The position numbers were made by a program, and so were the translations under genes. Below, piece after piece: positions 11,494 through 46,623 of a stretch of DNA of 64,000 bases. The stretch lies in NCBI GenBank assembly GCA_040954595.2, contig CM082578.2, positions 13,112,304 through 13,176,303 of the forward strand, written 5' to 3'. Source of the stretch: Balanoglossus misakiensis. Lineage: Eukaryota > Animalia > Hemichordata. The first letter of the stretch is position 1; every line of letters begins with the position of its first letter. Under the pieces are notes generated by a model that was given only the letters and a program-made list of their open reading frames with translations, was not told where the DNA came from and did not search any database.

Positions 11494-11549
11494 AAAAAAA
11501 ATGATGATTTCAATATACGGAACGCAGGGCTTATCTTAGGATGAGCAGA

Positions 11550-15995: not shown

Positions 15996-18900
15996 ATGGA
16001 TAGATCGAAAAATCGGGACTTAGGGACATCGAGACTAGTCTTAGGATTTCTGATTGCAGTTTGTTTCAGTCAGAGTGGTGAGTAATACGTATGCAAAAGT
16101 AACAGTTATATGCACGTTTTTGGGCATTGTCTGTCGGCCATTTTTTATGTAACCAGTGTTCTGACGACTTGACTTAATTTCTCTGTTCGATATCAATTAC
16201 CGAAATCTAGTCATTTAAAGATTCAATTTTTGATGGCGGTCTTCGACTTGAGTCAAATGAACTCGAAAACTTAACCAAAATCCTAAAATTGGAAACGGAA
16301 ATTAGAAAAAGAGTGTATGCAAATTACTTGACAATATGTATTGATGGAAAAAAACAAGGCAATCATCATGATGTCGAAAGCTAAAAAAAACGCAGATTTC
16401 GCTGAAAATGACGATATGAAAGATTGTCAAATTCAAATTATTTATTTCTTACAATCGTCTTCTAGCTATATGTTTAATGTCATTTGAGAACAAAATCAAA
16501 CTGGGGTTTTGATTTGCCAAAGTTACTGCAGTCGTTACGTCCGCACACAACGCACTTGCGAATTGATAAATAATTAATAACTCGAGATTTTGTACCGCGA
16601 TTTTCTAGATGGCGAGCATTATTTTGCTGTTATGCTGCTGTATACAATTACATGACGCCCCCTGTATTATAGTTTGGTGATATTTTGTATTTTTGTCGGT
16701 TTCCTATACTGATTCATATTTTAGTTAATCTCATAAATTGTTTAACCTTATGAAATTTGTTGTGTATCAAGATACAGAAATCTGGAAAGAACCGTCTTTT
16801 ATGTTATTTTTGTCCGAGGATTTCAGCCATGAAATCACGATTTCGAACACTCGGCTTATTTCAATAATGTTACGGCTGGGGGAAAACAATGATCTAATTT
16901 TCAATCTATCATCTTAAATGTCGACGTGATCAAACTCATGGCGCGAAACTTTTATGTTTTAATCACATTTCTCTTGCAGTCGTACAGAGCTTAGAACCAC
17001 ATTTGTGCAAGAAAACAGTCCCTGATAAGTGTGAAGGCTGGCAGTGTGAAAGGTTTGTCATTGACGTCAAATCCTTTTCTGTGTGTTTTGTGAAAAAATA
17101 AATATCCCTGGCGAAGAGGGGCGTAATTTAAGTGAAGATGTGGATGCTCGATTTCAATGTACATTGTACATGTATGCAACCACCTGTGTGAAAGTTTTGT
17201 GAAATCTGTTAAACTGGAATGCGCTGCCTGCCAGTGGTCACAGATTTCATATATCTATCAATTAGTGATGACATTGCTATTTTGCGTAACCATCATATGA
17301 CATCAAATCAGTTGTAAAAGTTAACTTGAATATTCATTTGCAGTAATTTACCCATCGCATGCTATCACGGAACATGCAACAACGAAACGGGAGAATGCCA
17401 GTGTTCACATTGTTGGACTGGTATCCAATGTGACCGTTTGGGTGAGTAACATGGCCTTTGGTCACCGGAGAAGATGCTTCATGAACTCATATATGTTTTC
17501 ACATAAAGGCAACTCTAAAATTGATGTCTAGACATCAATATTTTATGTCTCCATAAATTGTTTCGAATTGCGTATAAAAAAAGTCGCGGCCATGTTGATC
17601 TCCGCGTCCATGGTGGTCTCGATGTAAACTAACCGGCAAACCTTAACCACGATGACGTCTGTAGTAACCAAGTGGAAATCTCACATTCACTGTTTGTGAG
17701 CGTTTCGGCTCAACATGTGTGTACACACACTAATGGCGATAATCTAACATTATTGCAATGTCTGAACTCTGCCACCGAATAGAGCCAACAATGTATGTTT
17801 ACCAGTACGTTTTCAATCATGATCACCGTACTTGACATGTTGCGTCTGTATAAAACATGTCACGATGTTTACTACTGTAATAAAATCTGTCTCAAAATAT
17901 TAAACACTTTTAGGCATAAAGCTGTCTGATATATTTATACTTTTAACACATCAAACAATATGGAGGAAAATTGATTTTAAATAGGTCCACGTTAATCCGA
18001 AAGCCTCCATTGTCTTGTTGACAGTCGCTACCATACTTAAACTCTGGTATCGATCCATCCTTCCTTTGCAGAGAACAACAATGTCCCCGTGTTTCTTGAG
18101 AAGGTCGCGGAAGTAGAAGTGGACATCAACTCGGGTGATGACGTAGTCGCTACCGTCCTCGCGAGGGACCTGGACGCACTCAAGTGCCCGGATGACGACG
18201 AGTGCGCCTGTGCACGAGTGAATTATTTCATAGACTCTGGCAACAACCAATCGCTGTTCATGATACACCCGCATTCAGGTGTTATAAGTCTCGCGCCCGG
18301 TAAACTTCTCCGGGAGGGGCTGAAACACGCTCTTATCATAGGAGCACGGAATGCCGTTCCGCATCGTAAGGGACGGTCGATATCATTCGAAGAGACTCCG
18401 GGCGTCTCCAAGACGACGATACTTGTGTCTGCCGTTTCAAATGACGAAACGGCGCATTCAAGGAGAAAGCGATCGGTAAGAGGAAACAAACATTTTAAAT
18501 AGTTACAATATTACTTTAATAAATTTTTATTGTTTTTTTTTTGCCCGTGGGAGTGAAATTTCTTAAAATACTACTTCAGTACCTGGGCCAAAAGGATTCA
18601 TCGAAAGTGTCGTTAAACAAATGTTCAGTTCAGCTGAAATTGATGTAAATAGATTAACCGAATCCTGTAAGAGATGACCCTCGAGCCCTAAAGATGGATC
18701 CAACGGTAGCCTAAACGAGGCGTTTTAAATCAAACGTTTTGAAAAACGGAATGCGATGATAACATGTCTTGTTAATATTTTGATTCCAATATAGTCTGTG
18801 GGACTTCCGGATTCTGCAACGTTCGAGATCGAGAAATATGGCGACTTTGAGACAGACGCGAGTGTCATGGTGGGGACAAAGGTCCCCATGGGTCTTGTAA

Positions 18901-21900
18901 TATGGCTGCCTGCGATAACTACAAACATCACGGCGGAATTACTGACAGACAAAAATGGGACCGCTTTGATGACCCTATGTGACGTCAGAATCACTCATGT
19001 AGGGTCGAACTTCCCCGATTTAGAGGTTGACGACGTCATCATTACGATGGAAGCCGAAGCTGGAGATTATCGGGTAATTGAATTTATTATTTATTTCATC
19101 GTATCTGACTTCCATACATGTACCTTTCAAAAAAGACATTATGATCAATTTTTCGACAAATGACATATCATGCAGGAACATGTTGTTTACCTTAAGGCTA
19201 ACTCTATATGTGAATTAATTTAATCTCCGTTTGTGAATACCCAAAGTATGACCGGGCAGTGATCCAATTTGGCGAGGTGGTGAACCAGGCTACGGACACG
19301 TCAGATGAGGAGACCAGCAAGATCAAGATAGAGTTCTACGCCATCATGCAGCACGTGGAAAACGTGACAGACGGCGACCGGATCTTCGTCTCCGGGGCAG
19401 TGGAATATGACGACGAGGTGTGGGGTGGGCAGATACCCTTCACTTTCGTGCAGGAAGATTGGGTAAGGCGAATAAACAGCCATGCGTCAAAAACTGCAGG
19501 CCGTGTTTGTATTTATTTACAGGCATCATATCAATCCGTGTAGTAATCGGGATGATAATTTATTGGGATCAACACTGAGTCATTCTTTCCGCCACAGGTG
19601 AAACAAGCCGCGGTGTTGACGGCAGGCGGAGCGTCGGAACTGAGTAAACTGTCCGCCGAGATCTTCAACTTCACCATGGAATTGAGCGATCCTGCTAACG
19701 ATGTCCGAGTCGATGTTTTCACGCCTTACAACACGTCCGATGCCTTTTCGGTCTGTCGAGTACGCGTCGCGGACAAAGGTGCGTTTGAATATCGATGTGA
19801 CTGGTTTATTCTTTTCCAATAGGCGATTAGCCCCAAGAAATTGTCCACCGGTAGGATTACATGCACATTTTCAATGCAACTGATATATTTGATACCATTT
19901 GAATTGGATACCATTTATTCAATTCTGCAGGTTCTAGTTTCGGGTGTTTACCGGACGAGCTGCCGCAGGTATCATATGAAAATGCGACCGGTGTAAACAG
20001 TATAGCTTCCATGGATTTCGGTACAATTACCAACGCAGGTAAGTGCGAGCCCCGTTCAAAGACAAGACAAATTTTAAGGGATCTTTAATAGGAAAGAGTC
20101 TGTTGTATTTACTTGATTTCGTATTGCAATCTATTTTCCATTGGAACTATTTTGTTGCAACAAATTGGTTACTGTGAGGTCCACAACAGCCCCAAAATTA
20201 AACATGACCACTGTTTGTCTTTTGTTAGGTTCACGTATCGACACAACAACGTCCGAAGACAACACTATCTCTGGCCAGTTTGTTGTTGTCCTCACGAACA
20301 ACACCGAAGTTGTCGCAGGAGAGAAATACTGGCTCGGTGTGTCGCTCGTTATCGACGATTCGGAGATCTACTCGTCTCAGATAGCCGTGACAGCCAATCA
20401 GATTGCGCCCCCAACGATGGTAAGTTTTTCCAAGAAAGATCGATTAATCGATCGTGCAGGAAGAAAGACAAAGGTATTGAGCGAAAGTAGGAATCAAATA
20501 TAAACACTTTGTAGATTGTAATTTGCTAAACATGTGCATTCACACCAGGCGCCCTTTTTCTGTTGGCTGCGAAGTGCTGAATGTTGTTGTTGTACAAGTA
20601 ATGTTTGCGAACGTTGTCACCACTCAATATCATTCACATGTGTACCTCTCTATCTGTCTGTCTGTTTGTCTGCCATAATCACGGATCAAAATTCTCTTTC
20701 ATGTAGGCTACAAGCCCAGACATTTCCTTCTATGCCATCGACAGCAACGAAGTCGTCATCGGCGGCTCCGTCGGTTTCATCGTCAGCGTCACCCTGCAAG
20801 AGAGCGTGACCACCGCCTTGGTGATTGACATGTCCATGCCGTACAGCGACGGCACCCCTATCCTGTCCATCTGCAGCGCAAAAGTACTCAGCGTTGGTTA
20901 CAATATGCCCTGTGTCGGCGATGCCATCATGGACTATTATCAAGAGGTGGGTGGTGTCCGATACCAAACGATTTGCTTCGACATAAATATATTGGCTATC
21001 AGGCCAGTGCAGAGCCCAATTTTGTCCAGTCTGTGTACAACCACCATATTTGGCGACTTTGGATTTAGATGTAGAAGAAAGATGTTCTAATTACTGATGT
21101 TTAATTTTAAATCTCTCCTTGCTTTACTGTCTCTTCAATTTTGCCAGGATGGTTCAAAAACCGATTATGTCCAGTTCAATTTTGGTCACGTGGCTAACGT
21201 CGGAGAAAGACATCTTGACGGCGACAACACCATTGTCGTTCACGTGACTGCTAAACTGGAGCCAGACCACCCGGCCATCCAGATGAACAGCACTTTCCTT
21301 GTCACCGCCGGTGTGCGTTATGAGATGGCAGACGATGACGTGTTGTGGATTGCGCAGAACCCAATTAATGTGACTGATGACGCGCACGACTATGTGGGAG
21401 ACAAGGTAGTGTTCGCGTTGATTTTCCCCGTGTTTTGTTTTGTTTACGTAGAGCAATTCTCGGATGTTGAGAAAAAGTGTTCTGAACGACAAGGGTAGGG
21501 TGAACTCACATTTGACCGGGTCGCATTCATTCATTCATTTCTTTCTTTAAAAAATATTGTAGGTACCAACCTTCCAAATAATCAACCGGGCTGACGACAT
21601 CTACATCTACAACCGCTCGGCGGCGTCTTTCGAGTTCGAGATGTTCATCCCCGCCGCGACGACGTTCGAGCCGTTGACGGTTTACATCTCGATGCCGGTG
21701 GTGGAGCACAGGTCCCTGATGAGCGTGTGCCGGGTGGAGCTGGTCCACTTCGGTCAGAACTTCGCGTGCTACGACACGGGCGACATCAACATCCGGTACT
21801 TCTCCACCCAGAACGACGACCTCAACGACCAGGTCAGGATCCAGTTCGGCATCGTCAGCAACCCCGAGTTGGAAGACACGGAGGAGAACAGAGAAGGGAG

Positions 21901-24900
21901 CAAGATACGCTTTGAGATTCACGTCAACTTGGAGGAACACGTGAAGTTGGTTGATGGTATGGAAATTTGGAGCAGCATCGACGTCACCATCAGCGAGACA
22001 AGTTCGTGGACGGGACAGATACTCTTGGTGGCAAACTTTACCAGACCAGACCTGTACCTGGTAAGCAAATATATTTTCTGTTGTTAAATATCGGGATGAA
22101 ACCAATCAACGCTTTTAAAACGCAATTTGATAGATTCCTCCCCACTTGTTAATTACGTTGTGTCATCTACTCATTGTTACCAGGGGGAAACCGAGCCCGA
22201 GTACGACTTTTACCGAGAGTCACGCCGAGGCAGAAAACTGAAAGCCGGCGGCACCGCCATCTACTACGTCTCCATGATGACGTCAGAGCAGACCGTGACG
22301 GGCTATTCCCTCAACGTGACGGCACCGAACGAGACCCTTTCCGTCTGTCGAGTTCATCTGGTCGAAGCCGGCCGAAACATACCTTGCTTGGACCTGGAGA
22401 GGGAGGCTTCCTACTTGTCCTATGATGAAGACAGTCACTTCGACGCCGCTGTCCTTGACCTGGGGCCACTACGGAACACAGGTATGTGGATTTTGAAGTA
22501 CAATTTCTTCTCTCTCAGCAGTTAGGCCACTTTCGATGGTCTGTGTCCGACTTGTACGTCATTTTGAACGCCATTGGTAAAGATACACGGTCACAGGTCA
22601 CCTATACGCAAACTAAGCCACTATTACCATAAGTTATCTAACCAATCGAGACACGCCGTTTTACCCATATATGGGCACATGTAAATTAGAGATGACTATA
22701 TACCTTTACATGTATTCATAGTTTGAGTAGGTTTCTTTTGATATTCACAACCTTTGCTCTACGTTTTGCCATGCCAAGGTTTACCGCCTACCGCCAACGA
22801 TGACGACAACTTGATGGTCGCCCAGGTGGTAGTCCAGATGAGACCAGCGGCGCTGCCACCTGACAACATAACCCTCCCAGACGACCAATACTTCTCGGTT
22901 GCCATGAAGACCGGGACGCAAGACGTATGGACCGCAGACGATTATTTGGAAGTGAATGTTGAACCACCAGATTTAAATTTCGTGAGTAAATTAAGTTAAC
23001 ACATGCGTTTTATATTGCTGGTGAAATGTACACGTCTCGGGGGTAGAAAAATGATAGTCCTCCAAATATTCCAAATCCAATTTTTAATGTAATTTTTAAG
23101 AGAGAATGCCATTGAATTTTGATCCTAAACCGTTTGCTTGCAGACTGTGCTTCCGGAATTTACCCTGGAAAAGCTGACCTCGGAAACGATGGTAATGATT
23201 CGCGGCGCCGCCGTATTCAATCTGGATATGTACATCCCCTACGCCACCATAGCCGACTACCAGGTGTCGTTCTTCAGTGACGTCACACAGGCGCACAAGA
23301 TGCAGGTCTGTGACGTGCAGATCGTGTCCAGTGGCTGGAACATACCGTGCGTCAACGGCAGTCACGTGAACACGATGTACGAGTCCTCGTACGAGGATGA
23401 GCATTACGACGCCGCCTACACGGATGTTGTCACCCTGAACAATATGAACCTATATGGGACCCTACAAGACGACGTGAACAAGGCAAGTTGCATGGAGACA
23501 GAGCAAAAAATCAACTTTTTGCAAAGCGATGAAAGGGGAGACAACGATAGGGGGGGGGGCATCTGCTAGCAAGTGGAAGTTTGGCGTGAGAAGTTCACTA
23601 ATTTGAAATTTAAAAAAGTTTGAGATATTAAATTTCCTGGAAAGTGAGCGCACGAAAGCAACATAGTGAACGCCCTGTTCGGGGTACTTGTGGGTACTTG
23701 AAAATATCCGAAGTGTATGCTGCTCCTAAGAAGCAGTTTACACATTCCTGGCAACAGACATCGTCCAGAATTACCCCCCTCTCCCTCCTCCGACGGATTG
23801 ACTTACCATTGGTTTACACTATTTGTTTGCATTAGGTCAGAGTTCAGGTGGTAGCTCAGTTGGCGAACAACGAAACCATCGAGGACGGTGATGAATTCTG
23901 GGTAGGTGCGTCTGTCTCTGTCAACGATGGAAACATGTGGCTCCTTCAGACTCCGTTCACTGCCACAGAAGACATCATATCCGACGAGGTAAGGAACATT
24001 TACCCGACCATGGTACTCGGAAGCATGTAGCTTTGAGAGAAACTGAAAACGACCAGAAACCATTTTACCGTGATTTCAAATCAGGGGAAAGACGTACCCT
24101 CGCCACAAAGTCATGCAGCGAATTTCAGCACTTTGATTTCCATTGACGATAAAATGATGTCCTGATTTTTTCCCTCACAGGTCCAAGGAGACCCGATCTT
24201 TGACCTGATCCCGCCCTACGAAAACGTCACCATGATGATCGGAACCGAGGAGACGTTCATGATGAATATCACCATACCTCCCATGTCCACCCCGTTTGTG
24301 ATCAACGTCAGTATGCCCTACATCGGCGACGAAGCCCTGCTTAGCATCAGTAAAATGGAACTGGTCTACGTTGGCAAGAATTTTGCCTGCAGTCCCTTCT
24401 GGAAATTGGAACCAGAGTACATTTCGGACACACAGACCAGTCAGAACACGACGGCCATCATCGATTTCGGAATCATTATGAATCATGGTGAGTATTATAA
24501 TTATTAGAGTTCTAATAAGAATTCGTGATGATATTATCAGTTCCGTGCATGTGTCGACATTTTCCGGTAAGAATACGAAAGCTATTCGTTGATCCCTATG
24601 TCGCCCTCTACAGGCACGTCCTACTATTACCAGTACGGCGATTACCAATATGGGGACGACGACTTCCACATAACTCTCACGGTGCAGTTGACGGATCACG
24701 CGGAGAACACCAACCATTCCATCGTGCCATTCAACGTGTCCTTCCACTACAGCCAGGACAGAGTTGTCACTTTGAACGAGTCCGTCGAAGTTCTGGTGTT
24801 GGGCGACGAAGAACCAGAACTTCTTTTCAACCTGACCGTGGCGGACTACGATCCGGCCGAGGTCAACCAGGGGTAAGATTTGTTTTAGCAAGAATCCCTG

Positions 24901-27900
24901 CAAACAATTCAATACGTCAATTGCCACTATACAAGGTTATCTTTATGAAATGGCACCTTGAATGCTTGTAACTAACATAAGTTAGCGTTCGCTCCGTAGG
25001 GATGTATTGGATATCTACGGGATGATTCAACACTCGAACACGTCATCTTCACATGCGCACAGCGTCAGGATAAACTTTATGATCCCGGATTACCTGGAGT
25101 TCTCTGAAGTTATGGAATTCGAAGGGCCAGAACCGTGTATAACTACGGGAGTTTATGGACTACAATTCCACGTAAGATATCCATTTGGAGTTTACCTCGT
25201 GGCTTCCATTAATACAAGTTATCAATGATAACACTCGTAATAAATATGCCACGATCCTGGACACTAATAACCCTAATTACTTCATTCATCTTTCAGTTTG
25301 ACGAGCTGTTTTTCACCGATTACTACTGGTTCCATTTCAACCTGACTATGGATCCTCTGCGCACTATAGAAATTGGGTCCAACTTCGTGAACACCACTGT
25401 GCCTATCGATGCCATTTACTACATCCGACAGGGCGTCGACAGCGATGGTAACGTGGAGCTGGGAGACCTTTACCAGACGCCTACTGAGGTGGTGGACATC
25501 GTGTTCAACGTCGCCGGTGGGTGTCCATAGAATTTCCAGGCCTTTTTCTCCATAACTCTCATCATAATGTCGTTGCAATGCCAATAAACGTATGCGTAAA
25601 AAGGGTAGTCCTTTTCGAATATAGTTTACATCATTATAACGTCACAACTTGCATGGGCCTTGCATGGCGGACGTCATGCGCTGTTTCTAAGTTTTCGCTG
25701 TAATTTGTCATATTCCCTCTGTTAAAAGTTGAAACTCCACTGATAATACCATTGTCTCCACAACTGTTGCAGAATGTTATGACGTCATTGGCATGGGAAC
25801 ACTGGATCCTTGTCAGTTCACGGCGAGTTCGTATTCGGACGATCACACACCATCAGAAGCCGTGCTTTACACCGGGACCGGTTGGGGATCCGCCGTGCGT
25901 GATATGGCCCCTTACAAAGGCAACGACTACATTCAGGTAAGCATCCATGTTATGATTTCAAAATACACAAAGTCCATGCTTAACTACATTCTACAAGTTT
26001 CATTTAAACGTGATGTATTTATTTATTTACAGGTTTTGTTCGATGATATCTATCGCGTCTCTGGGATCACAATACAGTGGGGAGACGCAGAGGCTTTGTA
26101 CGTCACTAAGCACCGCATGGAATACAGCAATGAAGGGTTAATCTGGCACGACTACCAAGAAGATGGCACAGATGTGGTAAGAAGCGCGCTGTCATTTAAC
26201 TTTTTGATAATGGCGTCTTTTCGTTGCAAATACCTGCTGTTTAAATTAGTCACAAAATGCATGTACGAAACTGTAGATATGTCCTCAATATGTTTTCAGT
26301 ACGCTGTATATCGACCAGACCTGTATGCATTGTATGAAAATAACGCCAGTTTACATTTTCATCTTCACAGGAATTTGTGAACGCCTACAACGAAAGCTAT
26401 TTGGATCCATGGGTGTTACATATACTAAGTGAGCCCTTTGAAGCGCAATATGTTAGAATTATACCGACAGAATACGAGCCAGTGATAAACAACACCAAAC
26501 ATTATCCTGTGATGCGCTTCGAGTTGTTGGGTTGTATAAAAACACGCATTAGTTCAGAAACCGGTAAGTTGTGTGAGGTCAACTCAGAATAATGTACGAC
26601 TGTTGCGGTAGATGTAATATCACGTACATGACTGGAGACTTTATGCGAAATTTGAATGAAAAAGTTAAATGCAATACACAATTTGTTGTTCGTGCCGCTT
26701 GTGTATCTTTTAACATAAATATGATTCAATTTCTTTTCAGATCTATGCCAGACAACTAGTTTCCCAGGTAGGCATCCCTTTTATGTCATCGGATATAATT
26801 CAAATTCATGGTTACCGGTTTTATTTAAAATAACAACAAGTAGCCATGATATGCATGGAAATAAAGAGGCAGGTTACGTAACTATCAGCTTAGAAGTAAA
26901 TATGCACATGTAAAACATCATCGCACAGGTGCTAATTAACACATTCCGTTATTCTAATTTGTTCCATAGATTGGGGTCATTACGAAAGAGGTTTTATCGT
27001 GGACCCTGTGGATGGAAGCGTGTTTGTCTGCATTTTGGAATACATCGAGTAAGTGTAACAGTTGCGGAATTACTTTGTACAGCAGACTGGTAAATGTGTC
27101 CACCGGGGGTTGTGTGCGTGTGTGGGGGGATTTTGATTTTTCTCCTTGTGTGAGTGAATGGGAAGTATATTTTAACTGATTGGCTCATCACCCCTTTCTA
27201 TCATTTCAGTGGACCAATGCGGTGCTCGTTTTCACGTGACAAAGGCGAATCATGGCACGGTTAGTAAACATTACATTTCTGTGGATGAATTCAACACGTA
27301 CACGTATTCATAGATACATACATACATTTGCGTCAACGATTTTCAAATCCAACAATTATCAGCTATCAAATGATTTCATGTCAACAATTTTAAGTGTTAG
27401 TTTGCGTTTTACACAGACATGGATACAAATGTTGGCAACATACTGGCACTGATACCGGATACAAGGGAGATATACGGGATTGCGCAGAGCAAAATAGCTG
27501 TGATGCGCAGTGACGATCTGGGCGAAACCTGGTACTCCATCCCCGTCGACAATTACCTCGACTACGTGGACAATCCGCCGAGCAACATGGTGAGAGTAGA
27601 AGAGGTGCCGTTCGCCTACATTGCCGATTACCCCGAGCCTACATTCAACGACTCGTCGACGGTGGACGAATTCTACCAGTGGGGAGGTAAGTCGCTTCTG
27701 TGTGAAGGAAAGCCCAGCTCTTGCATTCCGGCATACGGTGGCATGATACATCAATTTGAAGGACACAGATTCTTGAAATATCACAAATGAAACTTAAATT
27801 TTCTTTCATGCTTTCAGCTGCTAAAGATGGCATATACAAACGCGAGCTAGTAGTTGAGACGACGACAGGCCTTGACAATTCCACTTTTTCAACGAGCAGC

Positions 27901-27948
27901 TGGAGTCAGTGGACCCTCACGGGAGAGTGGACGTACCCAGTTTCTTGA
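15996..27948 (+). CDS. Gene A: large secreted multidomain protein (signal peptide, EGF-like, cadherin, furin site, 7 beta-rich repeats, DUF11-like, FA58C/discoidin, Asp-box C-terminal region), ~1878 aa, 28 exons
   Basis: Phase-consistent exons: 15996-16077,16980-17052,17344-17441,18072-18475,18795-19073,19247-19462,19598-19778,19931-20038,20229-20419,20707-20946,21148-21405,21563-22060,22184-22481,22779-22981,23144-23482(GC donor),23836-23988,24181-24487,24614-24872,25000-25171,25297-25516,25773-25936,26033-26176,26371-26563,26741-26767,26970-27048,27210-27259,27417-27686,27818-27948 (sum 5637 nt). N-term MDRSKNRDLGTSRLVLGFLIAVCFSQSVVQS; EGF CYHGTCNNETGECQCSHCWTGIQC; cadherin ENNNVPVF..ARDLD..SGVISL; RRKR; discoidin C..IGM..QFTASS..YIQV..AQYVRIIP..MRFELLGC; Asp boxes SRDKGESW, SDDLGETW; TGA 27946-27948; colinear with gene C. 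Confidence 0.9.
18072..18475 (+). other. Gene A cadherin-domain exon ending in furin site RRKR-S
   Basis: ENNNVPVF (DxNDNxPxF-like), ARDLD (AxDxD), YFIDSGNNQSLFMIHPHSGVISL, followed by HSRRKRS at the exon end. Confidence 0.88.
25773..26563 (+). other. Gene A coagulation factor 5/8 type C (discoidin) domain, 3 exons
   Basis: CYDVIGM..CQFTASS..GW..DYIQVLF..VSGITIQ..YSNEGLIWHDY..PFEAQYVRIIP..MRFELLGC. Confidence 0.9.
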
Positions 27949-34387: not shown

Positions 34388-37300
34388 ATGAAAATGTTTT
34401 GTCAGTGCATTTTGTTGGTCCTGTTGCTGCACACTAATCTTCTAAATAAAGGTGAGAAAATCGAGAGAAAATTGCAATTAATTCAGGCCTAGTTATGTTT
34501 TCGGTAACAATGAAGTCGCATTTTCGTCTTTGCAGTAAATGGCGCCGACGTGCAGTTTTGCAAGAAAAGTGTGAAGGCCGCTGACGACTGTGACTCAAAA
34601 TCTTGTCAGAAGTAAGTATTCTCCAGTATCTTCAACAAAACACCCCGTGGCGAAAGGGAGAAGTGTACGACGCGTATACTTGTGGTATTTTTTGTTGACA
34701 TTTTTGCTGTTGTTTTTCTTATGAACATCGCTACTTTCTTTTTAGTCATTTTCCGCCTGAATCAATGACCATCGCTTACTTTCACACGTTCTTTTCAATA
34801 TTTCAGACCACTTGAGTCGGTGTGTCTCCATGGATACTGCAACAAAGAGGGAGACTGTGTCTGCGATGCATGCTGGGAAGGCCCAAGCTGTGACAAATAT
34901 TCAGGTATTTGACTACATATTACTGTTACGCTAATGTGCCTCGAAAATCAGTCATCCGCTTTCTCTCACGTTTTGCTCAAGCCAAATTTACATTACGTAT
35001 CGTCTTCCCATCAGATCCTACTATTTTGATGGAAACATCGCCATCGTTTCAACGGTATATCTGCGATCTTTTGGAATGTCAAATTTACCTTTTGGTATAA
35101 GCCGGAACAGTTTTGTTCAATGCAAAAGAAGTCGCGCAATGTCGATAAAACAATAATGGCCACCTGCGTCCAAACATGTCTTATCCATTTATGCTCCAGC
35201 GATATTGATCATTTTGCTCAGTTTTCTTTGGAAATTCAATTATTGTACCGAGTATGCAGTGAATGACAATACTGAATATGGAATCAATTAACTAGTACAT
35301 TTAGAAGCAAGAATATCGACTAAAAACAAAATCAAACCCGGTTTAATTGTCCTTCAGTAAGGTTGTCTGGACGATTGTGACGTAATACCACAGAAGAAAT
35401 AGTTTCGGAAACTGCAGTTGCAACAAATGTCAAACGTGATCGTTAAAATTTTGAATTTTTTTTCGATCTGTTTCCCGACCAGGGCGAATAGCTGTCAAAT
35501 ACACTTTACTGTACTGACTTTTGGAAAACTAATGAAAATTTGGCAGAGCTACCAATCTACCTACCAACCAACCAACCAACCAACCAACCAACCAACCAAC
35601 CAACCAACCAACCAACCAACCAACCTACCTACCTACCTACATACCTACTATACCTACCTACCTACCTACAAACGCACACACGCATGCATACACATTTTAA
35701 TGGCCTGAGTTGAAAAACATACATGCATAATTAAACTAATGATGGTCCTTTCCACAGTCAAGTTCGTTAAAAGAAAGTATGAAGTAAACCTTGCTGCCGA
35801 TTTTCCGCAAGGAGTGGATTTCCTGTTTCTCGAAGTTGCGAACGCCGAGGCCGAACGGCGAGATTTCGCCGGCTGCGCAGACGCGGTAGCATTCGCAATC
35901 TCGTGGGACAGCAGTCACACCTTTCAAGTGGATGCAAACAGTGGTGGCATAAGACTCTCTCCCGGCGCCGATGTGCAGGAAGGCGAAGAGCATGGCATTG
36001 AAGTGGTGGCCAGACACAGATCTGAAGACGGTCATCGAAGTTATGATGTCGACACTGCACGGGTTGTCATTCACATTGGCCCAAAGGACAGTGACAATGA
36101 AGTCATACTAGATCGAAGAAAAAGGGTACGCACCTATACATGTACCTACAACCAGTAACACGAAAAAGCGTATTGTATATCGATGGGCAGCGCATTTTAA
36201 CATGTAAAACCCCATGGTGTGGCCACCATTGCAAATTATAGCCAAACTTACTATAAGAAGAAAACTCGCCACTTCGTGTTCTTTAGAATACTTAGACACT
36301 CAGACTTTTAGCCATAAGTGAGAATATGTAATAAATTATGGTGGATTTAATTCCGTTAAACCCTGACAGAATAGAGAATAACAAAAACTGTCTTTCTTTT
36401 CAAAGTTTGTCGCAGGGGAATCTGAGAATGTGACTTTTGCATTGGAGAAAATCGGCGACTCGGTGGACACGACTGAGGTGTCCCTGGGCACGCGGGTGTC
36501 TTTCCGCATGTCGATAACATTTCCGTTGAATTCGGAGACGGACGTGACGGCGGAAATTTACACGGTTGACGAGAGCACGGCAGCGATGGTGATTTGTAAC
36601 CCCGCGGTAACACACGTCGGCGATAACATCGTTATTCCGCCTGAACAGTCGCTCCAACCGATACTCGAGGCTAGCACTGGTAACATTATGCAGGTACTGT
36701 ATTGAATGATGTGTATTATACTGTTTTCATGGCGAAAATGCCAAATTGTTGTTATGGTAGTTATTCTATCTCGCACACTGCAATGCATGGCAGTGTGTGG
36801 GAGAGAATTTGTGTACACTTTCCCCACCAAATCATCCTAGAACTTTGGGAGCTGGAATTTAAAACGGGACTGTAGCACTGTTAACTAATTTTCCTTCATC
36901 ACGTGTATACAAAGCCTGACATTGCCACGTTTGAATTCGGGCGTGTATCCAACAATGGCCTCGATTTGGACAACATCAACTCCAGTCAAATCCACATAGA
37001 GTTCGATGCAGTCATGGTGGACGAAACCAATACCGTTGAGGGCGGCACTTACTGGGTGAGCGCCGGCGCACAGTATGACGAAGAAAACCAGGTCTGGATT
37101 GGACAGAAACAATTGAGTACAACTACGATAGCCTATACTGAGGTGAGAAGTTTTGTAAGTCGTTTTCGTATATAAGTTGCTGATTTGTTGTTTTCTAACC
37201 TGGGAGAGTGGGTGGTGGATGGGGTTTTGAAATGGACTGATACATGGATGGATGGACGGATGGATGGACTATCTGACTGACGCGTCCAATGTATGCTCTA

Positions 37301-40300
37301 GACAATGTGTAATCGACCGCATCTATTTTTTTCTCTTATGTTGTTTCTCCAGCCGCCGATCGGTTCTGCTGTCGTCGAATTTGACGTGCCGAGTGTTGTT
37401 AATGCCGGATCTACCTTCATCGCGACCCTTGACATCTTCGTTCCCCAGCAACAGGCGTCCATCGTCGTAACAGTCAACGCTCTGTCAGGCTACCCAAACG
37501 CAATGTCTGTGTGCCATCTTGGAATCGTCCGCGTAGGATCGGATTGGGATTGCATGCCCATATTTGAAGCCGTTCCACTGTTCACCTTAGATGATGGAGG
37601 AGTCTTCAGCAAGCAAGCCGAATTAAATCTTGGTACCATAAGGAAAACCGGTACGTCATAAGCAATCGTACGGCTGGGCAGAGCATTCTCTCTTCTTGTC
37701 CACGTGACTCTCCTTTCAGAACTGCGATTCCCTGGTTTGCTTTTTAACACTCCCGATATTTCTATGATATTTTCAGTTGCACCAGGTGTCAGCGACCCTC
37801 TGGACACGCTGATCTCTTTGGAGATCTTGATGACAGTTGCAGCAGACGTTTTGATTGGTGAGACCTTCCACGTCGACGCTGCGGTCGAATTCGACGGCGC
37901 CCCCTTGTGGTCATCGGTTGTGCCTGTAGCAACAGCACCTGAGCTGCTGCCAATTCCACTACAAATTGTAAGTCGCATACACCCCGAGATAATTTCAGTA
38001 TACTAAGTATATGGGCTTGTTTTCCAAGCAAGCAAATGTTTTAAAACATAATTGCTAAGAAGTTTGGCGACAACTGTGTTTAAAGATTGGAGAGATGATA
38101 TTTTACCTCGCATTCTTAAAGAGAACGTTAGTGCACGGCGTGGGCAGATTGTGAAGGGTGACAAAATGTCGGAAGAGGGGAGGGGGGTGAGATGAATGCG
38201 AGAAAAATATTTTTCAGGCGCCGCCCGGACTTGAACCTGGGGTCTCTAGTTGTTACCAACCAGTGCTCTTACCAGCTAAGCCACAGCGCCTTCCTACTCT
38301 CTCCACAGTTTCTTAAGATCATAATAAAATGCGCAGTACATGTAAGGCAGACAAAATATGACGTCGGATAAGTCGTCTTGAAATCGATACCGGCTGTTAA
38401 AAATTCCTCGCGTGTAAGACAACATAAGTCAGCACGCATAAATTTCGCAATATTGTCCCGCCATTGTGTATTCTGCAACTTTCATTCGCGACGATGTCAA
38501 ATGACAATTTTCCCCTCAACCACATGAACAAAACAGGAGCAAAGCGATTTTGATGAAAAGAGCGAGGCTGGAAAATATTTCCACAATGGCGGCCATCATC
38601 GCCAACTCTGTCTCAGTGTGGCGCATGTGTATGGAAGCGAGGACGGACACAGCTGTCCTCGCGCATGTGTTTTACGAAAATATTTCGTGTCATGATGTGG
38701 CACGCACTGTCATACTTGCCCCGATCATGCCAAGAATTTTACAAGCATTAGCCCGAGTAAGCGACTTCTAACTGCACAAGTGTCATTCTCACACAAGTTT
38801 GTTTTCACAAATGGCTTATATCTATAATAAATCCCACGTACTTCTGACTTACATTTGATTCTCTATCCCTGGTACTTCAGCTACCGGAGTCACTCGGTTT
38901 CCGCACATATATCGACGATAATGTTGTCATCAACGCGTCCTTCGTCTTGGACCTAGATGTTACCTTGGTGGAAAACACTGTTGGCGATTACACGATTGAC
39001 TTTGCGATGCCCTTTGACGAGACGGCCATGATGAGCATCTGTGACGTCACCCTGGTATTCACGGGTTTCAACATACCTTGCATCTACCACCTGGACGTGG
39101 AGCTGAGCTCCAGGGGTCATCCTGAGGTCAAAGACCGGGCGACCATCGCCCTCTCGTCTGTCCGCAATCTTGGAAGACGCGGCGGGCCCGACGACGATAA
39201 ACTGATTTTCAGGAGCGTCGTGAAAGTCGAAAATCATCGTTTGCTGTCGCCCGGGTCAACCGTGGAGGCGTTAGCCCGTGTTAATGGCGACGCTACATTT
39301 AAAACCTTGGCAGTGGTGGCACCGAACCAAATAACGGTAAAAAATTGTTTATGGATTCTTCTAAATGAAGTGCGATGGACAATATTAGTTGCATGTTAGT
39401 CTCACGATATATAATTACAATAAACAAAGCCTATGACATATACCATCCTGTAGATTTTAAGAGCTTGTGGATAAAAATGATTTTATAATGATAAAATATT
39501 GCCCCACCCAATGAAATTTATTTCCAAGGATAAAGTTCATCATCACCATCAGAAACATAATGTATACACGGCTACGTTACCTGGGGTATGATATTAGCCT
39601 GCAAAACTTGGGATAATAAACGACGCCTTTTTGCGTGTGTTTTTTGCAAGAGTGATTGAATAAACCTGTACTATGAACATGATGCCTAAGGCAAATATTT
39701 ATTCTCTCCTTTATGTTGTTCTGTGTCCACTTCCAGAACGCTAGTCCAACTTTCTCTGCATCAACCTTACCATCCAGTTACGTCTACCCAGGAGCGCCTA
39801 CATCAGCCACATTTGTGATACACACCTCACCAGGAGAGACCCTTGCATCCGTGACCGTTCACGCCAGTCAACGGGGCTCTCCCTCCGCACTGTCGATATG
39901 CCAGGCGAAAGTGGTTTACGTGGGCGACGGTTTGCCTTGTCTCCAAAACGATGTTAGGACCATCAACAACCAAGTGGAGTATACTGTCGAGTGAGTTTAG
40001 TTTTCTCAATCATATACGACAGGTCACGTGAGTGAATGAATGAGTGAGTGAGTGAGTGAGAAAGTGAGTGAGTGAGTGAGTGAGCGATACTCAATTTCAA
40101 TTCACAACCACCACCACCACCACCAAACAACAACAACAACAAATTTTGTGAGAATAGCAACATTAAACTTCAACCTTTTCCTTTCCAGTCAGCAATATGC
40201 CACAGAAGCAACCATACATCTCGGCACAATATCGAATGTACAAGTAGACGAGTCGTGGAATGCCATCAACGTTTTCCATCACATGATTATGATCAGCGTG

Positions 40301-43300
40301 GTCGTGGTTCTTGAAGGCGAAATGTACGGACCGGAGTATGGTGTTGACTTCACCGTATCCACCGGAAGCGACGTTTGGTCCGATAATACTACCGTCTTGA
40401 CGGGCGCTTCACTTCCAGGTCTAGCAGCAACTGTAAGTTACTACCTACAATTGTGTGGATGGATCAAACTCTGATTTTGGCGTAAAAAAAACTGATTAAG
40501 GGGCTCTGTTCTTCTTACAATCTGAAACATTAACAAAGTAGTCTTGCCTTACGTGTGCATCATATACTATCTGAATGCAGGTGGCCCCCTTAGACAGCTC
40601 TCTGCAGAAGGTGTACCCGCCGACCAATCGCGTGGCGCCCGGAGACTTTGCCAAGTTTGAGATTCACGTCGGAGTGCCTCAGTGGCAAGCGGCGAGTTTC
40701 ACAGTAGAAGCCACAGTTGAAGACAGCATGCACGTTTGCTCGTTAGTTGCTGTCAGAGTTGGCAGACACTATCCGTGTGTCGAAATCGAGACCTTGCCTG
40801 AAACGCAGTTCGAAACAAACGCTGACAGCAACAGGAATGTAAAGGCCACATTCACCAAAACAGTCATAAACGTCAGTAAGTGGTCTTGGTCTTTTCGTTG
40901 TTTGGAGGATATAATGCGATCAAACCGTTAACGAAGGTGCTCTTTGATTGAAGTGTCCATGTTCCTTGAAGACCTGGCCTCTGCTGCAAATTTGATGACT
41001 AAGCGATTTCAAATTGCAATTTTTGGAAAGAGTTCGACATATCTTCAATGTGGCCTTTGTTAAATCTATCTTATGCCTCGATTTCTTTCGTTCTTACAGG
41101 CCCACCAGGCTTCAATATGCACATCACTGAACAGGACTTTTTTGTCTTCGAGTTGGTGGTTCAACTGAGCGGAGACTTGGATGTAGCCTACGATGGTGCC
41201 GAGTTCCTGGTCAACGTATCCTACGTGTGCGGGGAGACGCAGCAATGGAACAACCACTCCCGGTTGATTATCGACCATTCCCTTCTTCAACCACAGGTAC
41301 GGCCGGTAATTTTCAGCGCATAGTCAAAATTACAAAAAGAGGGGGGGGGGGGGGGAGGGAGAAGAAGAACGCAAGAAAACAGATTGCAGACAAGACATCA
41401 TGAATCAAAATTTTGCGTTTTGATCTCGAATCACTTTCGTAACGTCTTTTCTAGTTATACGGTACCGCGGTCTTCAACATTTATGCAGATGATCCAACGA
41501 ACATTATCAGAGGAAGTATCTTCACCGCGATATCCACCGTCGAAGTGCCAGTTGGTAGCTCCATGCCATATAACGTCTCCTTCTACGTTGATCCCGCTAA
41601 TCTTGGGGAACTGTCTATCTGCGGTGTCAGGGTGTCGTCAGTAGGCGACAACTTGAGGTGTATTGTGACAAACAAAACGTCAGATAGCGTGGCAGAAATG
41701 TGAGTAGAAATATACTTCTTGTATGTATGTATATGTGTGTGTATTTATGTACGTAGTACGTACATGTACCCCATTTATGTTTTTCTTTCTACCATTGTCA
41801 TTACCAGAGGAGAACAAGGAACCACTGATAGAATAACCATGAACATGGGCTATATCTGCAACGTTGGTAGCCCAGGCGAACTCTATGAGCCGTCAGAGAA
41901 TATGGTAAGATCAATCGCAAATCTTGTTGATTATCATAAATATTCGTACTAAATTAAATATGCCAGTACTGCACTGTGGTCTCAATAGACAACAGTTTTC
42001 AACTTCCTTATAAATATGAATGCCTTGCCCATCAAATCTGCCTCGGTCGTTCCTGAGATATCTTGTCAACAAACATCAGCCGGACAGACAGACAGACAGG
42101 GACAATACCGACAGATAGCCAGAAACTATAAAGAGGCACTTTGTGTGAGAATTCACAAAATGATGACCTTTCTAGCCATGAGGTGTATATAATATATTTT
42201 TTTCTCATCTGCAGGTTGAATTCGAAATCTATGTCCGTGTCATGAACTCCGCGGATTTAGTCGTCGGCAGTGACGTCACGTTACATGCCGAGTTGCTTCA
42301 GAATGACGGCATCAACGGCGCTGTCACTGATGCAAGGAGTCTTGGGCTCTCAATCTCCTCCACCACACCATCTGATATGGTCAACGTTGGTGAATTAAAC
42401 CTGAATGATTCGGTGAGTTTGATTGGTCACACTTCAGCAGTCGAGAGGTGGGTGTATAATATCTGGATTGTCTTTCAATCATGGTTGCATTAAGTGTCTG
42501 TATTTTCTGGGTTCATAACCATTTTCGACTCGATTTCTTTACGCTTGAAGGCATCGTTTGAACTTCAAGGGCCCGAACTTCCAACCAATCTCCGACCCGG
42601 CAACACGGCTGTATACAACATCACAATGACGCTACCAATCGGAGCAGCCTCTCTCAGCATGGACGTCGAACTGCCATTCGCGGACAGCGCCCAGATGGCA
42701 ATTGTTGCCGTCGATGTCCTGTATGCCGGGGAGAATATAGGCTGCTTCGACTACAGCTTGCAGCCGACATTCACATCCAGGGACGGCAGTTCGCAGCATG
42801 ACGCGGCTGAGCTCGATTTTGGAGTAGTTGTCAATACAGGTAGTGTTTTCCTTGTGACGGCTATAATTTTTATATCGACTTTTACTCATCATACACGGAT
42901 TTTTTGGGGAAGGAAGGAAGGAATGACCGACATGGCTACATATTATCATTCATATAGATAGCAAATAACATTGTTCACTTTTTTATGACAACAAAGCTTT
43001 TAAATTACCTTTCAGGTGTCACAAAATCGAGCGGCGCGTGGACAGAAGAGGATGACCAGATAATCGTCAGCGTCGCGGTGCTTCTCACCGACGCCATTGC
43101 AAACGTCCACGGTGTCAGTGTCTGGTTCAGCGCCGGTGTCACTTATGCTAATAAGCTCACCTGGATCGGCGAACAAATTACCTACGTCTCACGTGATAAT
43201 CTCGAACGGCCTTATTTGGATGTTAACGTCACGCCGCAAAATGATGTATATGGCCTTGTTCGTGGGTACGCATCTTGTCATTTAAACTATGGGCCTATAT

Positions 43301-46300
43301 ACGCAGTATTTTACTCGGGTTTGATAATAGAAAAGGTGTACTAGCCTATAGGACAAAGCCCAAAATAACTCAAATTTTCAAGTGATTGTGAGATTTTTTG
43401 CATGTTAACCATAGTTTGTCAAACGCCACAAGTCATGTAGCACCCCAACCGTAATGTTATCGATATCTGACACACACGTTTAATAGTACTATCTTGCAAT
43501 ATTTCTCAGAGATTCTGTCAGCTACAACATAACGCTGTATCACACGCCGGACTCCTCAGCCGAAGCCCGCAACGTGACCGTCTCCCTCTTTCTGCCGCCG
43601 TTCCTCGGGTACTCAGGCTATCAACACGCAGGCGTAGAACCGAATCTCGTCGCGAACTTGTCGGCTGGGATCTCATTTCAGGTGAAGATTTTGTACAGGT
43701 CCCGGCATCCAAGTTTGTACTGTTTTGCTTTTGTTTCGTTAAAACTACTCGGCGAATCGGAGTTCGCAATTATGCAAATCACAGTCAGACTCCACTCGCC
43801 ACTCTCAGACATGTGTGCATTCTATTGCCCGGTTGTGAGTCGCACTATCCGAAGACTTGATTGTCTTTCGATGTCTTATTTCCCTTGCAGTTCACCCGAC
43901 TGTTTTTCACCGACATCGTCACCGTAGAAGTGGACGTGCTGATTGACCCCGCGAATACCTTAGAATTGGTCGGCAGCATCCGAGCCGCCACGCCGATCGA
44001 ACTGCTCTATTCTATGCATCCACGCATCGGAAACATAAATCCAACTGGAGCGGTGTTTTCCGAACCGGGACTTAAAGTCGGCACTTTCAATTTCACTCGT
44101 CCATATGAAGGTACAGGAGGCACCGGAGGGGAGGGAGGGGGTTTACTACTTTCATGATTAACTTTTCTGCAACCAGCGCCCATTATTGAAACTCTACCCG
44201 CTTCTAAACCAACCTCTCAGAAGTAAATAAATTCACCCTAAAAAGTTAATGCCACTGTCTCATACGATTTCGCCCGCGAATCGCTTACAGCTCATGCCTG
44301 AAACGATTAATAAATGTTAACTACCTTTTGCTTTTCTGGTCAGCTGATGGTGGATGCGATGTAGTAGCACTTGGGATGGAAAGTGGGGACATCCAGGACT
44401 GCCAGATTCTGGCATCGTACGAACCGGAAGAAACTGCTCCAGGTCACTTTGCCCGATTGAACATGAATAATGCGGGTAAGAGAATCTTATACCCCCCCCC
44501 CCCCCCCACTACAGGTTTACCCACACACATCTGACAAGGCGGTCGGTTATACACGAAAGCTTCGACTGGTGATTGGTCAAACCCCAGGTGCGGTGCAAAG
44601 CACGTAAAGAAATCTAGACCAAAGATTACATTATATGAATTAAGTGTGATACATGCCCCCCCCCCCCCCAACACACCTTACACTTTCCATCTGACGGACA
44701 GCTCGGCCCCGATCTTTGTTTTCAAACAGCCTGGAAAACCCAGTCCCGATCAGATGATAGTAACCGCTGGATCAGAATTGACCTGGGTAAAAGACACAGA
44801 GTCACGCGACTGGCTACTCAGGGTGGCGAGGGCGTGGACGCCAGCGGTGGTTTCTACAGCGGACAAATCGAAACCTTCCAGCTGCTATACAGTGATGACG
44901 GAATGCTATACCGCACAGCTGAGTCTCAATCCACATCTACTAATCTGGTAAAGGATTATGTATGAAGAGATTTCACAACTTGTTTAGCTCAGAGCATATA
45001 AACGCAATACAAGAATACAAAATATGAATAATATAACCCTAATGCGATGGAATGTAGAAAGATATTTATGCGCATTATATCCATGTAAGTACAGTTTCAA
45101 TAATGAGTGTTTGTTTTCTTTGTTTTACTGTTTTGTTCAGTTTCTGCACGGCGTCGTGCCTGATGCAAATGCCATCACATACCACGATCTGCTAGCCCCT
45201 GTCGAAGCTAGGTACTTCATGCTATACATTTACACGTTTGACACAAGTGCCGCCGAGACGTATACTGCCCTTCGCATGGAGCTGTATGGCTGTCCGTTGG
45301 AAGTTAATCTTGCAACAGGTACTATACATCTTGTTTGTTTGTCTGTCCACCCAACACTATAATGTAGAATCCTCAAGTGGGTATGATCATGTCATGTACT
45401 ATTGTTTTATGGTCAAGTACATAAATGCTTACTATTCCTTTTTCTTCACCGTAGATGTTTGCGAGGTGTCTGCGGTCGATAACTTGCCGGAAGAACACGA
45501 CAGAAGCTTTGTGGTTGACAATGACAACAATACGCTGTATCTTTGTGACGTCAATCGAGACTACCCGTCTCCCAGGCTTCTGATAGACTCCCAGAGTGCC
45601 GTGGTGCTTCCAACGAGGTAAATCACCAGTAATAAGTCGTGCGAGCCCAGGCATAGATCGTGGAGCGAGAACTCTTCGGTCTGCGGTCCAGAGTAGATTG
45701 CATGGTTAATTTCTCCGTATTGAAAAACAATCTTGTCGATTCATTGCAAAACAACGACAACAACAACAACAACAACAATTGGAAAATTAATTAATAATTG
45801 GAATTTTATGGTATGATCTCTAACACAACTATTGGTCTTATCTCCCCTAAAAATGCAGACACAAATACTGGGAATGCGCCTCGACTGCAGATGGATCCAC
45901 GTGGAAACGTAAGCGCATCGATGTCGTTGATGTTTCCGTTGTGTTACGTTTCTATAACGTATAGTGTATATCTTGGTTTATCCACAATGAACGGGCCGAT
46001 GAGAAAATATATAATGCCCAAACAATTGTCCGAAAGTTAGTAGCTTTGTCCCTACAGAAGTCCATGTACTCATGATACATTCGTTGTTCACCAACGCAGG
46101 TCTCAGCGATCTGGTGCGCAGTTTTGCAGGTTACGACACGACCAACAAGACCGTCTACGCCGTCTCCGCCGGGAATCTCCAAGGCTTTCATTACATCTCG
46201 TCGCTGGATGGCGGACTGACCTGGAACCCCGTGTCGCCTCCTGAATGGGACGCAGTTAAATCCAAAGAAGGCTTCGTTTCTGCGATTTCAGTGCCATACG

Positions 46301-46623
46301 TATCCAGACAGAATGACTTCGATAGTAATGACCCTGACATTGATCCTATTTACACACTGGATAACTGGGGAGGTTGGTCAGATTACTTCTCGCTTGAACT
46401 GTCTCTGTCTCTCCTCTCTCTCTCTCGTGTTCTTAATGCTCATATCATATGTATAGTTCAGTACGCTTGACTTCTATACTTGGATAAAGAAGCCAAATAC
46501 CAATATAACCGTCCATTTTCTATTTTTCTTTCAGCATCTTTCGGTGGGATGCAGCACAACGTCGCTTCCACCTGGGAGAAAGTCCTCGATTGGAACACCT
46601 GTCCAATATTGAACTGTGTATAA
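34388..46623 (+). CDS. Gene C: paralog of gene A with the same domain order (degenerate cadherin domain), ~1876 aa, 27 exons
   Basis: Phase-consistent exons: 34388-34451,34536-34611,34807-34904,35758-36125,36406-36693,36915-37142,37353-37650,37777-37967,38881-39336,39737-39990,40189-40432,40581-40875,41100-41296,41455-41699,41808-41904,42215-42412,42551-42839,43016-43265,43510-43681,43891-44110,44344-44475,44730-44947,45141-45318,45455-45617,45859-45908,46100-46372,46535-46623 (sum 5631 nt). Signal [24 protein letters not shown]; [26 protein letters not shown]; cadherin-like [12 protein letters not shown]; RRKR; discoidin [47 protein letters not shown]; Asp box SLDGGLTW; TAA 46621-46623. Confidence 0.9.
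35551..35669. repeat. Compound (CCAA)n/(CCTA)n microsatellite in gene C intron 3
   Basis: accaaccaacc... grading into acctacctacc... Confidence 0.95.
38216..38290 (-). pseudogene. tRNA-Thr-like pseudogene or tRNA-derived SINE head, intronic and antisense to gene C
   Basis: Minus strand GGCGCTGTGGCTTAGCTGGTAAGAGCACTGGTTGGTAACAACTAGAGACCCCAGGTTCAAGTCCGGGCGGCGCCT: 7-bp acceptor stem GGCGCTG/CGGCGCC, A box, B box GGTTCAAGTCC, T5 run just downstream; resembles eukaryotic tRNA-Thr(AGT) but has an 8-nt anticodon loop and a T-stem mismatch. Confidence 0.75.
40028..40141. repeat. (GAGT)n followed by (CAC)n(CAA)n microsatellites in gene C intron 10
   Basis: Directly visible simple repeats. Confidence 0.9.
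44344..45318 (+). other. Gene C FA58C/discoidin domain, 3 exons
   Basis: [31 protein letters not shown] and LRMELYGC motifs in canonical order. Confidence 0.93.

Follow-up and report, generated by a model that had tools for sequence, protein, structure and literature searches.

Two paralogous genes of the hemichordate Balanoglossus misakiensis, here called A and C, encode proteins with seven tandem repeats of about 165 residues, and it is highly probable from sequence comparison that six intrachain disulfides lock these repeats together, each joining the first conserved cysteine of one repeat (C1) to the second conserved cysteine of the next (C2). Both genes lie in a stretch of 64,000 nucleotides (the window; positions 13,112,304 to 13,176,303 of the forward strand of contig CM082578.2, assembly GCA_040954595.2), and all coordinates below are those of the window. 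The first repeat (R1) carries C1 only and the last (R7) carries C2 only, and among homologs C1 of repeat n, C1(n), and C2 of the following repeat, C2(n+1), are retained or lost together. The end losses, noticed in an initial annotation of the sequence, are confirmed, and the pairing of neighbouring repeats is supported by strong comparative evidence.

The spliced model of gene A is open, with 27 coding exons, GT/GC-AG junctions and 1,850 residues excluding the signal-peptide exon, which a tblastn search of the window did not locate; its intron at 23483 is of the GC-AG type and is backed by the reading frame and by the Ptychodera flava ortholog. Gene C likewise has an open spliced frame with GT/GC-AG junctions. 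Judged by sequence identity, gene A is the ortholog of P. flava XP_070558199 (P0001; 79.3%, 1466 of 1848 aligned residues; 68.6% to Glandiceps XP_077978323), and gene C is that of P. flava XP_070558196 (P0009; 56.5%, 903 of 1598 residues). The two P. flava proteins have neighbouring accession numbers and contigs of equal length, so the genes are probably linked there too; in a tree, A clusters with crinoid and Lingula proteins and C with sea urchin proteins, suggesting an old duplication. No further paralog pieces were found in the window, as none of 60 tblastn matches fell outside the two genes.

Both proteins share a common layout, in which a Cys-rich segment, an EGF domain, one cadherin-like domain and an RRKR site precede the seven repeats, and a compact eighth domain, a discoidin domain and a BNR-like tail follow them. 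All seven repeats start at phase-0 introns in both genes. From the signal-like exon of gene C and the N-glycosylation sequons (34 and 19 in the products of A and C, in that order) we infer entry into the secretory pathway, and both proteins are predicted to be secreted; no transmembrane segment is evident, with polar C-termini and a top 19-residue hydropathy past residue 60 of 1.64 (A) and 1.86 (C). The features are as follows.

16980..27948, + strand: gene A, 27 coding exons found, open spliced frame, P0001 ortholog
16980..18475, + strand: gene A N-terminal part, Cys-rich, EGF-like and one cadherin-like, with a furin-type RRKR at an exon end
18795..19462, + strand: gene A repeat 1; C1 codon 18978-18980, C2 position occupied by Asp (19017)
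19598..20419, + strand: gene A repeat 2; C1 19754, C2 19945
20707..21405, + strand: gene A repeat 3; C1 20872, C2 20911
21563..22060, + strand: gene A repeat 4, a single phase 0-0 exon and the domain used for folding; C1 21728, C2 21767
22184..22981, + strand: gene A repeat 5; C1 22346, C2 22385
23144..23988, + strand: gene A repeat 6; C1 23309, C2 23348
24181..24800, + strand: gene A repeat 7 (end approximate); C1 position occupied by Ser (24349), C2 24388
24801..25516, + strand: gene A eighth compact domain (start approximate); the P0009 counterpart has a weak DUF11 match
25773..26563, + strand: gene A discoidin (F5/8 type C) domain; PF00754 E 2.3e-16 in P0001
26741..27948, + strand: gene A C-terminal BNR/Asp-box-like region and stop; BNR E 0.08, Atlas leads 0.88-0.90
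34388..46623, + strand: gene C, paralog of like layout; signal-peptide-like exon 34388-34451, last exon 46535-46623
36406..43265, + strand: gene C repeats 1-7; C1 only in R1, both in R2-R6, C2 only in R7
Gene C cysteines of R1-R3, + strand: R1 C1 36595 (Ile at the C2 position); R2 37512 and 37551; R3 39040 and 39079
Gene C cysteines of R4-R7, + strand: R4 39899 and 39938; R5 40737 and 40776; R6 41620 and 41659; R7 C2 42743 (Val at the C1 position)

The motifs quoted in the initial annotation were all found in the sequences of both genes, and the absence of C2 from R1 and of C1 from R7 was mapped to codons of both spliced models. Homologs were collected with an R4 query against 1.84 billion representative sequences (35 matches) and an alignment-based search (20 matches, 17 of them new); a full-alignment homolog search was dominated by cadherins and gave no new family member. 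The named full-length matches are all uncharacterised animal proteins. They come from hemichordates, crinoids, sea urchins, Lingula, Owenia, Lineus, Macrostomum, bivalves, gastropods, cephalopods, scorpions and Strigamia; the family occurs in hemichordates, echinoderms, brachiopods, annelids, nemerteans, flatworms, molluscs, scorpions and a centipede. Near-duplicate cluster members (P0003, P0037, P0038, P0041-P0046, P0048), partial proteins (P0006, P0027, P0029), twelve short fragments and four unrelated cadherins were excluded, and the alignment comprised 40 database proteins together with A and C (n = 42). A hidden Markov model of the repeat recognised seven repeats in 39 of the 42; P0002 (six repeats, truncated), P0032 (six, R1 missing) and P0017 (five) were dropped from the counts.

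The two commonest cysteine columns are each filled in 220 of 290 repeats, and the C-x12-C spacing that had been described for A and C holds in 167 of the 172 repeats with both cysteines. The end asymmetry recurs throughout the seven-repeat proteins, with C2 missing from R1 in 38 of 38 scorable cases and C1 missing from R7 in 39 of 39; since A and C are only 22.5% identical, shared losses of this kind are not due to chance. A five-repeat octopus protein, possibly a faulty gene model, also keeps a C1-only first and a C2-only last repeat.

The pairing proposed in the initial annotation, C1(n) with C2(n+1), is borne out by the way in which cysteines are lost. Over the six junctions (n = 231, with a cysteine one residue off counted as present), both partners are present at 205, neither at 23, C2 alone at three and C1 alone at none, so that losses are not random along the array. 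Within single repeats (R2-R6, n = 194) both cysteines are present in 163, neither in three and one in 28, and each of the three double losses lies between two lost junctions. For other pairings, C1(n) with C2(n-1) gave one joint and 24 single losses, and C1(n) with C2(n+2) four and 25. The paired losses affect five junctions and fall in at least eight separate places on a FastTree tree: junction 2/3 in scorpions, P0022 and a partial centipede protein; 3/4 in P0068; 4/5 in P0069; 5/6 in Diadema and Babylonia; and 6/7 in Diadema, gastropods, Lineus, Macrostomum, P0067 and P0069.

Shared descent was taken into account with phylogenetically independent pairs of proteins. In the ten pooled pairs with a difference in C1(n), C2(n+1) changes in step in 7.9 and in the opposite direction in none, and the same-repeat C2(n) changes in step in 1.1; in the nine with a difference in C2(n+1), C1(n) does so in 7.8 and the same-repeat partner in about one. 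The pooled count of 8 to 0 gives p ~0.008 in a sign test. Among eight hand-picked non-redundant proteins there are nine co-lost junctions against a shuffled mean of 2.1, a number reached in none of 200,000 shuffles, and their intra-repeat co-loss count of two was reached in 112,761 of 200,000. A scan by mutual information with average product correction (MI-APC), which was blind to cysteines and covered 234 repeat pairs with 60%-identity weighting but was otherwise uncorrected for descent, placed C1(n)-C2(n+1) first among 21,904 inter-repeat column pairs (z 9.2; runner-up z 5.2). The reverse pair, C2(n)-C1(n+1), ranked 21,543 of 21,904, and C1-C2 of the same repeat ranked 5,933 of 10,329.

These counts bear directly on two other arrangements. 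The initial annotation had offered as its alternative that C1-C2 bonds form inside R2-R6 and that an R1-R7 bond closes a ring or joins chains head to tail, which likewise consumes all twelve cysteines in A and C. That scheme is contradicted by the same-repeat losses, 28 single against three joint, and by the low MI-APC rank; moreover R7 C2 is lost in 15 proteins, yet R1 C1 is retained in 38 of 38, and R7 C2 instead tracks R6 C1 (24 both, 16 neither, no discordant case, n = 40). Sequence-drawn repeat boundaries can also be shifted, and if the real boundary lay between the two cysteines the bond would be an ordinary intradomain one. Such a shift would, however, pair C2(n) with C1(n+1) and predict the opposite end losses, and that pair is co-lost in one of 25 cases and lies near the bottom of the coupling ranks; the phase-0 introns at repeat starts, together with a single-exon R4 that folds alone, set the register independently of the cysteines. 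Both arrangements were rejected, and we give either a negligible chance.

The repeat R4 of gene A, modelled alone with AlphaFold2, forms a nine-strand sandwich with a predicted local distance difference test score (pLDDT) of 96. C1 (residue 56) sits early in an unbroken strand (53-63), and C2 (residue 69) comes after the next turn. Because strand direction alternates, C1 should lie at the chain-exit (C-terminal) pole of the modelled domain and C2 at the entry (N-terminal) pole, and weak couplings (26-116, 28-114, 21-54, 54-119 and 2-69) agree.

The positions of the poles matter for a further arrangement, in which C1(n)-C2(n+1) bonds form between side-by-side chains one repeat out of register and cross-link a fibre or mesh. 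This would predict identical end losses and co-losses; disulfide-linked protein fibres are known, as excerpts of PMC11362473 report for ENA pili, and in many homologs unpaired cysteines are present and the chain ends with a Cys-Cys motif. We nevertheless regard it as improbable, since opposite poles are what head-to-tail stacking within one chain needs, and since the second-ranked coupling, column 33(n) with column 112(n+1) (z 5.2), fits a head-to-tail interface, if weakly. Co-loss also demonstrates coupling and not chemistry, and the two cysteines might meet at the interface without a disulfide, binding a metal ion or packing as free thiols. Against this, the protein looks secreted, with its signal-like exon, sequons, EGF and discoidin domains, and in a secreted setting the oxidised state is the normal one for paired cysteines; nor does any His or third Cys exceed 45% conservation across the 290 repeats. 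We hold this variant to be distinctly improbable.

Several observations nonetheless weigh against six intrachain staples between neighbouring repeats. Co-loss by itself does not separate an intrachain from an interchain bond. The tree was built with FastTree, is midpoint-rooted and contains one long-branch join; every single junction has too few independent pairs for significance, which the pooled count alone reaches. The three junctions that hold C2 without C1 run counter to strict pairing. Antedon and P0068 have lost R2 C1 and kept R3 C2, and each has gained an R2 cysteine (columns 33 and 133) that is absent in its closest relatives and that, from strand order and weak within-domain couplings, would lie at the same pole as C1; Lottia has lost R6 C1, its R7 cysteine is one position off, and no substitute cysteine was found there. 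With at least eight separate staple losses, and with junction 6/7 gone in 15 of 38 proteins, an unbroken six-staple ladder is not essential in all lineages, and selection may act instead on local stiffening or on resistance to proteases. The six-repeat model, with a predicted template modelling score (pTM) of 0.56 and only generic multi-Ig matches in the PDB (TM <0.2), does not establish how the domains pack. A complex prediction that treated R4 and R5 of P0001 as two chains (score 0.00, alignment unused, partner fold uncertain) carries weight in neither direction.

With intrachain staples, the protein would work as follows. The chain would enter the secretory pathway, and cleavage at the basic site would free the EGF-cadherin part as a pro-region; an R-x-K/R-R furin-type site is present in 26 of 37 proteins and a KR or RR pair in nine of the other 11. 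The repeats would then stack head to tail, with C1 at the C-terminal pole of one meeting C2 at the N-terminal pole of the next, and oxidation would staple neighbours together. As just 13 residues separate C1 from C2 within a repeat, the staples and the short C1-C2 strands would make up a continuous covalent path from C1 of R1 to C2 of R7. For a full ladder the shortest such path is 65 residues, against 996 (A) or 998 (C), with 93.5% of the backbone bypassed.

Thirteen extended residues span about one domain length, so an oxidised array would have little slack and would presumably be rigidified by its staples. The effect may be likened to that of isopeptides in some pilins, as set out in excerpts of PMC8355295 and bioRxiv 10.1101/2025.04.25.650565. 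The oxidised stalk would resist extension and survive nicking, and a stiff stalk would bear the discoidin and BNR-like domains, whose presence suggests a binding head. That the stalk has a load-bearing or adhesive role we rate at slightly less than even odds.

Cysteines other than C1 and C2 also occur. Gene A has a lone cysteine in its eighth domain (25136-25138), at a C2-like position and common only to P0001 and P0068; with C1 absent from R7 it lacks a partner there, and may be a free thiol or one that links chains. Two additional cysteines are present in gene C and P0009, in R5 at column 154 (41100-41296) and in R6 at column 112 (41808-41904); a column 112 cysteine, whose partner is not clear, is found in R4 of 23 of 39 proteins and in R6 of 23 of 39, mainly in molluscs. 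An R7 cysteine and an eighth-domain cysteine occur together in nine of 41 proteins and never singly (P0010, P0015, P0024, P0039, P0056, P0059, P0060, P0061 and P0066, from an annelid, scorpions and bivalves), and this pair is likely a second type of inter-domain staple. The C-terminal Cys-Cys motif is present in most homologs; gene C has two spaced cysteines there (46535-46623) and gene A none, and such cysteines could mediate oligomer formation. P0033, an unnamed 189-residue fragment, is an R7-like repeat with neither cysteine, and would be in keeping with the neighbour-pairing rule provided that its parent protein has a single repeat.

The family is without a name and its repeats are without a Pfam model. 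Among 22 proteins scanned, no Pfam family matched the repeats above cut-off; DUF11 appeared in one (in the eighth domain, 17.7 bits against a cut-off of 24.6) and DUF7507 in two (P0035, 14.6 bits against 27), and an NCBIfam scan gave no useful match. The R4 sequence had no PDB match better than E 0.56, and the full protein matched the PDB only through its discoidin and EGF domains. Discoidin (PF00754, cut-off 28.2 bits) scored 60.5 in P0001 and 43.4 in P0009 and was matched at E <=0.1 in 16 of the 22; the EGF and cadherin matches in P0001 and P0002 are under Pfam cut-offs. Membership of the cadherin superfamily was rejected, there being one cadherin-like stretch (in eight of the 22, and below cut-off in P0002) and no transmembrane segment. 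A literature search of text passages, with supplements and most subscription journals outside its coverage, returned no description of the family and no disulfide ladder in such a tandem array, and proteomics tables may carry these proteins under other identifiers. Five accession terms used as queries returned no papers, and PMC6003135 and PMC8878817 are, in the excerpts available, about other FA58C proteins.

Elsewhere in the window, an 88-bp tandem satellite fills positions 1-11498 (130.5 copies, 98% matches, 28% GC), and a PDGF/VEGF-like gene with CXCXC repeats lies between the paralogs on the - strand (29606-30667, more exons likely to ~32000), its PDGF match being under the cut-off and its CXCXC match over it. 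An ACCA/CTAC microsatellite lies at 35549-35669, within an intron of gene C.

The modelled R4 fold is closest to CnaA-type pilin domains and CLIPPER (Z 11.7-13.4; Foldseek TM 0.53-0.59). EbpB (9LJ6) aligns over 135 residues with Z 13.4 and a root-mean-square deviation of 2.9, RrgB (2X9W/2Y1V) gives Z 12.4, and CLIPPER/DUF11 (9IFR) aligns over 116 residues with Z 11.7 and a deviation of 2.2; LrpA (8WB8) and BcpA (3KPT) were the other CnaA-type pilins compared. Atlas leads of 0.89-0.92, with DUF11 in 12-37% of the members of two clusters, remained below the tool's mark for recognition. The likeness extends to general plan, since pilin and CLIPPER proteins, as excerpts of bioRxiv 10.1101/2025.04.25.650565 describe them, have a covalently cross-linked tandem stalk between a signal peptide and adhesion-type domains. 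They differ in that the animal repeats lie in intron-bearing genes, are 6-12% identical to their structural matches, and have a predicted disulfide between domains, whereas the bacterial bond is within a domain. An isopeptide (Lys-Asn-Asp triad) in the repeats was ruled out, no lysine being conserved among the 290 repeats (highest column frequency 0.21), and the same isopeptide survey, in the excerpts, judged its eukaryotic matches to be false positives. In its working the family would resemble a cross-linked adhesin stalk, but it falls outside the isopeptide-domain families.

Cohesins and the leg domains of integrin alpha follow close behind the pilins (Z 10-11), so the fold match is no proof of pilin descent; on the model, descent from bacterial adhesins is possible. 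We think it rather unlikely that the family is an ancient bilaterian 'one-chain pilus', in which CnaA-type domains related to bacterial adhesin stalks have had the isopeptide replaced by a disulfide ladder to give a redox-switchable tether. If so, force would run through six S-S bonds and five 13-residue strands, and the oxidised stalk could hardly be extended beyond roughly its folded length. Reduction or loss of a single staple would let about two domains unfold, and lineages could tune compliance through deletion of single staples.

Lactadherin-type discoidin proteins share with A and C an EGF domain near the N-terminus, an F5/8 type C domain near the C-terminus and a secreted-type character. 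To our knowledge, they are without the 1,300-residue repeat region, the cadherin-like pro-region and the BNR-like tail. The staples themselves would not be new chemistry, as single inter-domain disulfides and inter-subunit chains of them are known. Excerpts of PMC7426717 describe a conserved inter-domain disulfide that sets the relative position of beta-rich domains in Siglec-3/CD33, and those of PMC7181871 a conserved one between Sema and IPT2 in a single extracellular chain of PlexinC1, along with the insertion of a protease site into a linker of that protein; these disulfides are one bond per protein between unlike domains, whereas in the family of A and C the bond belongs to the repeat unit and would recur at up to six consecutive junctions. 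In Bacillus S-ENA and L-ENA, disulfides join beta-rich units along the length of a highly stable fibre (PMC11362473, in excerpts), but these units are separate jellyroll subunits of a self-assembling polymer, unlike repeats of fixed count, seven, in one chain. Inside single domains, cross-links are known to prevent forced unfolding, as pilin isopeptides and titin disulfides do (PMC8355295, in excerpts). Within the literature searched, what appears to be new is an inter-domain disulfide repeated along the tandem array of one animal chain. With a self-stapling repeat, the backbone would be covalently continuous and need neither an enzyme nor polymerisation; variants in which nature has deleted a staple allow the mechanical idea to be put directly to the test, and the repeat unit could act as a stiff, reducible protein spacer. 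A repeat that carries its own neighbour staple, with the staple's ends 13 residues apart, would be a different design from either intradomain or inter-subunit cross-links.

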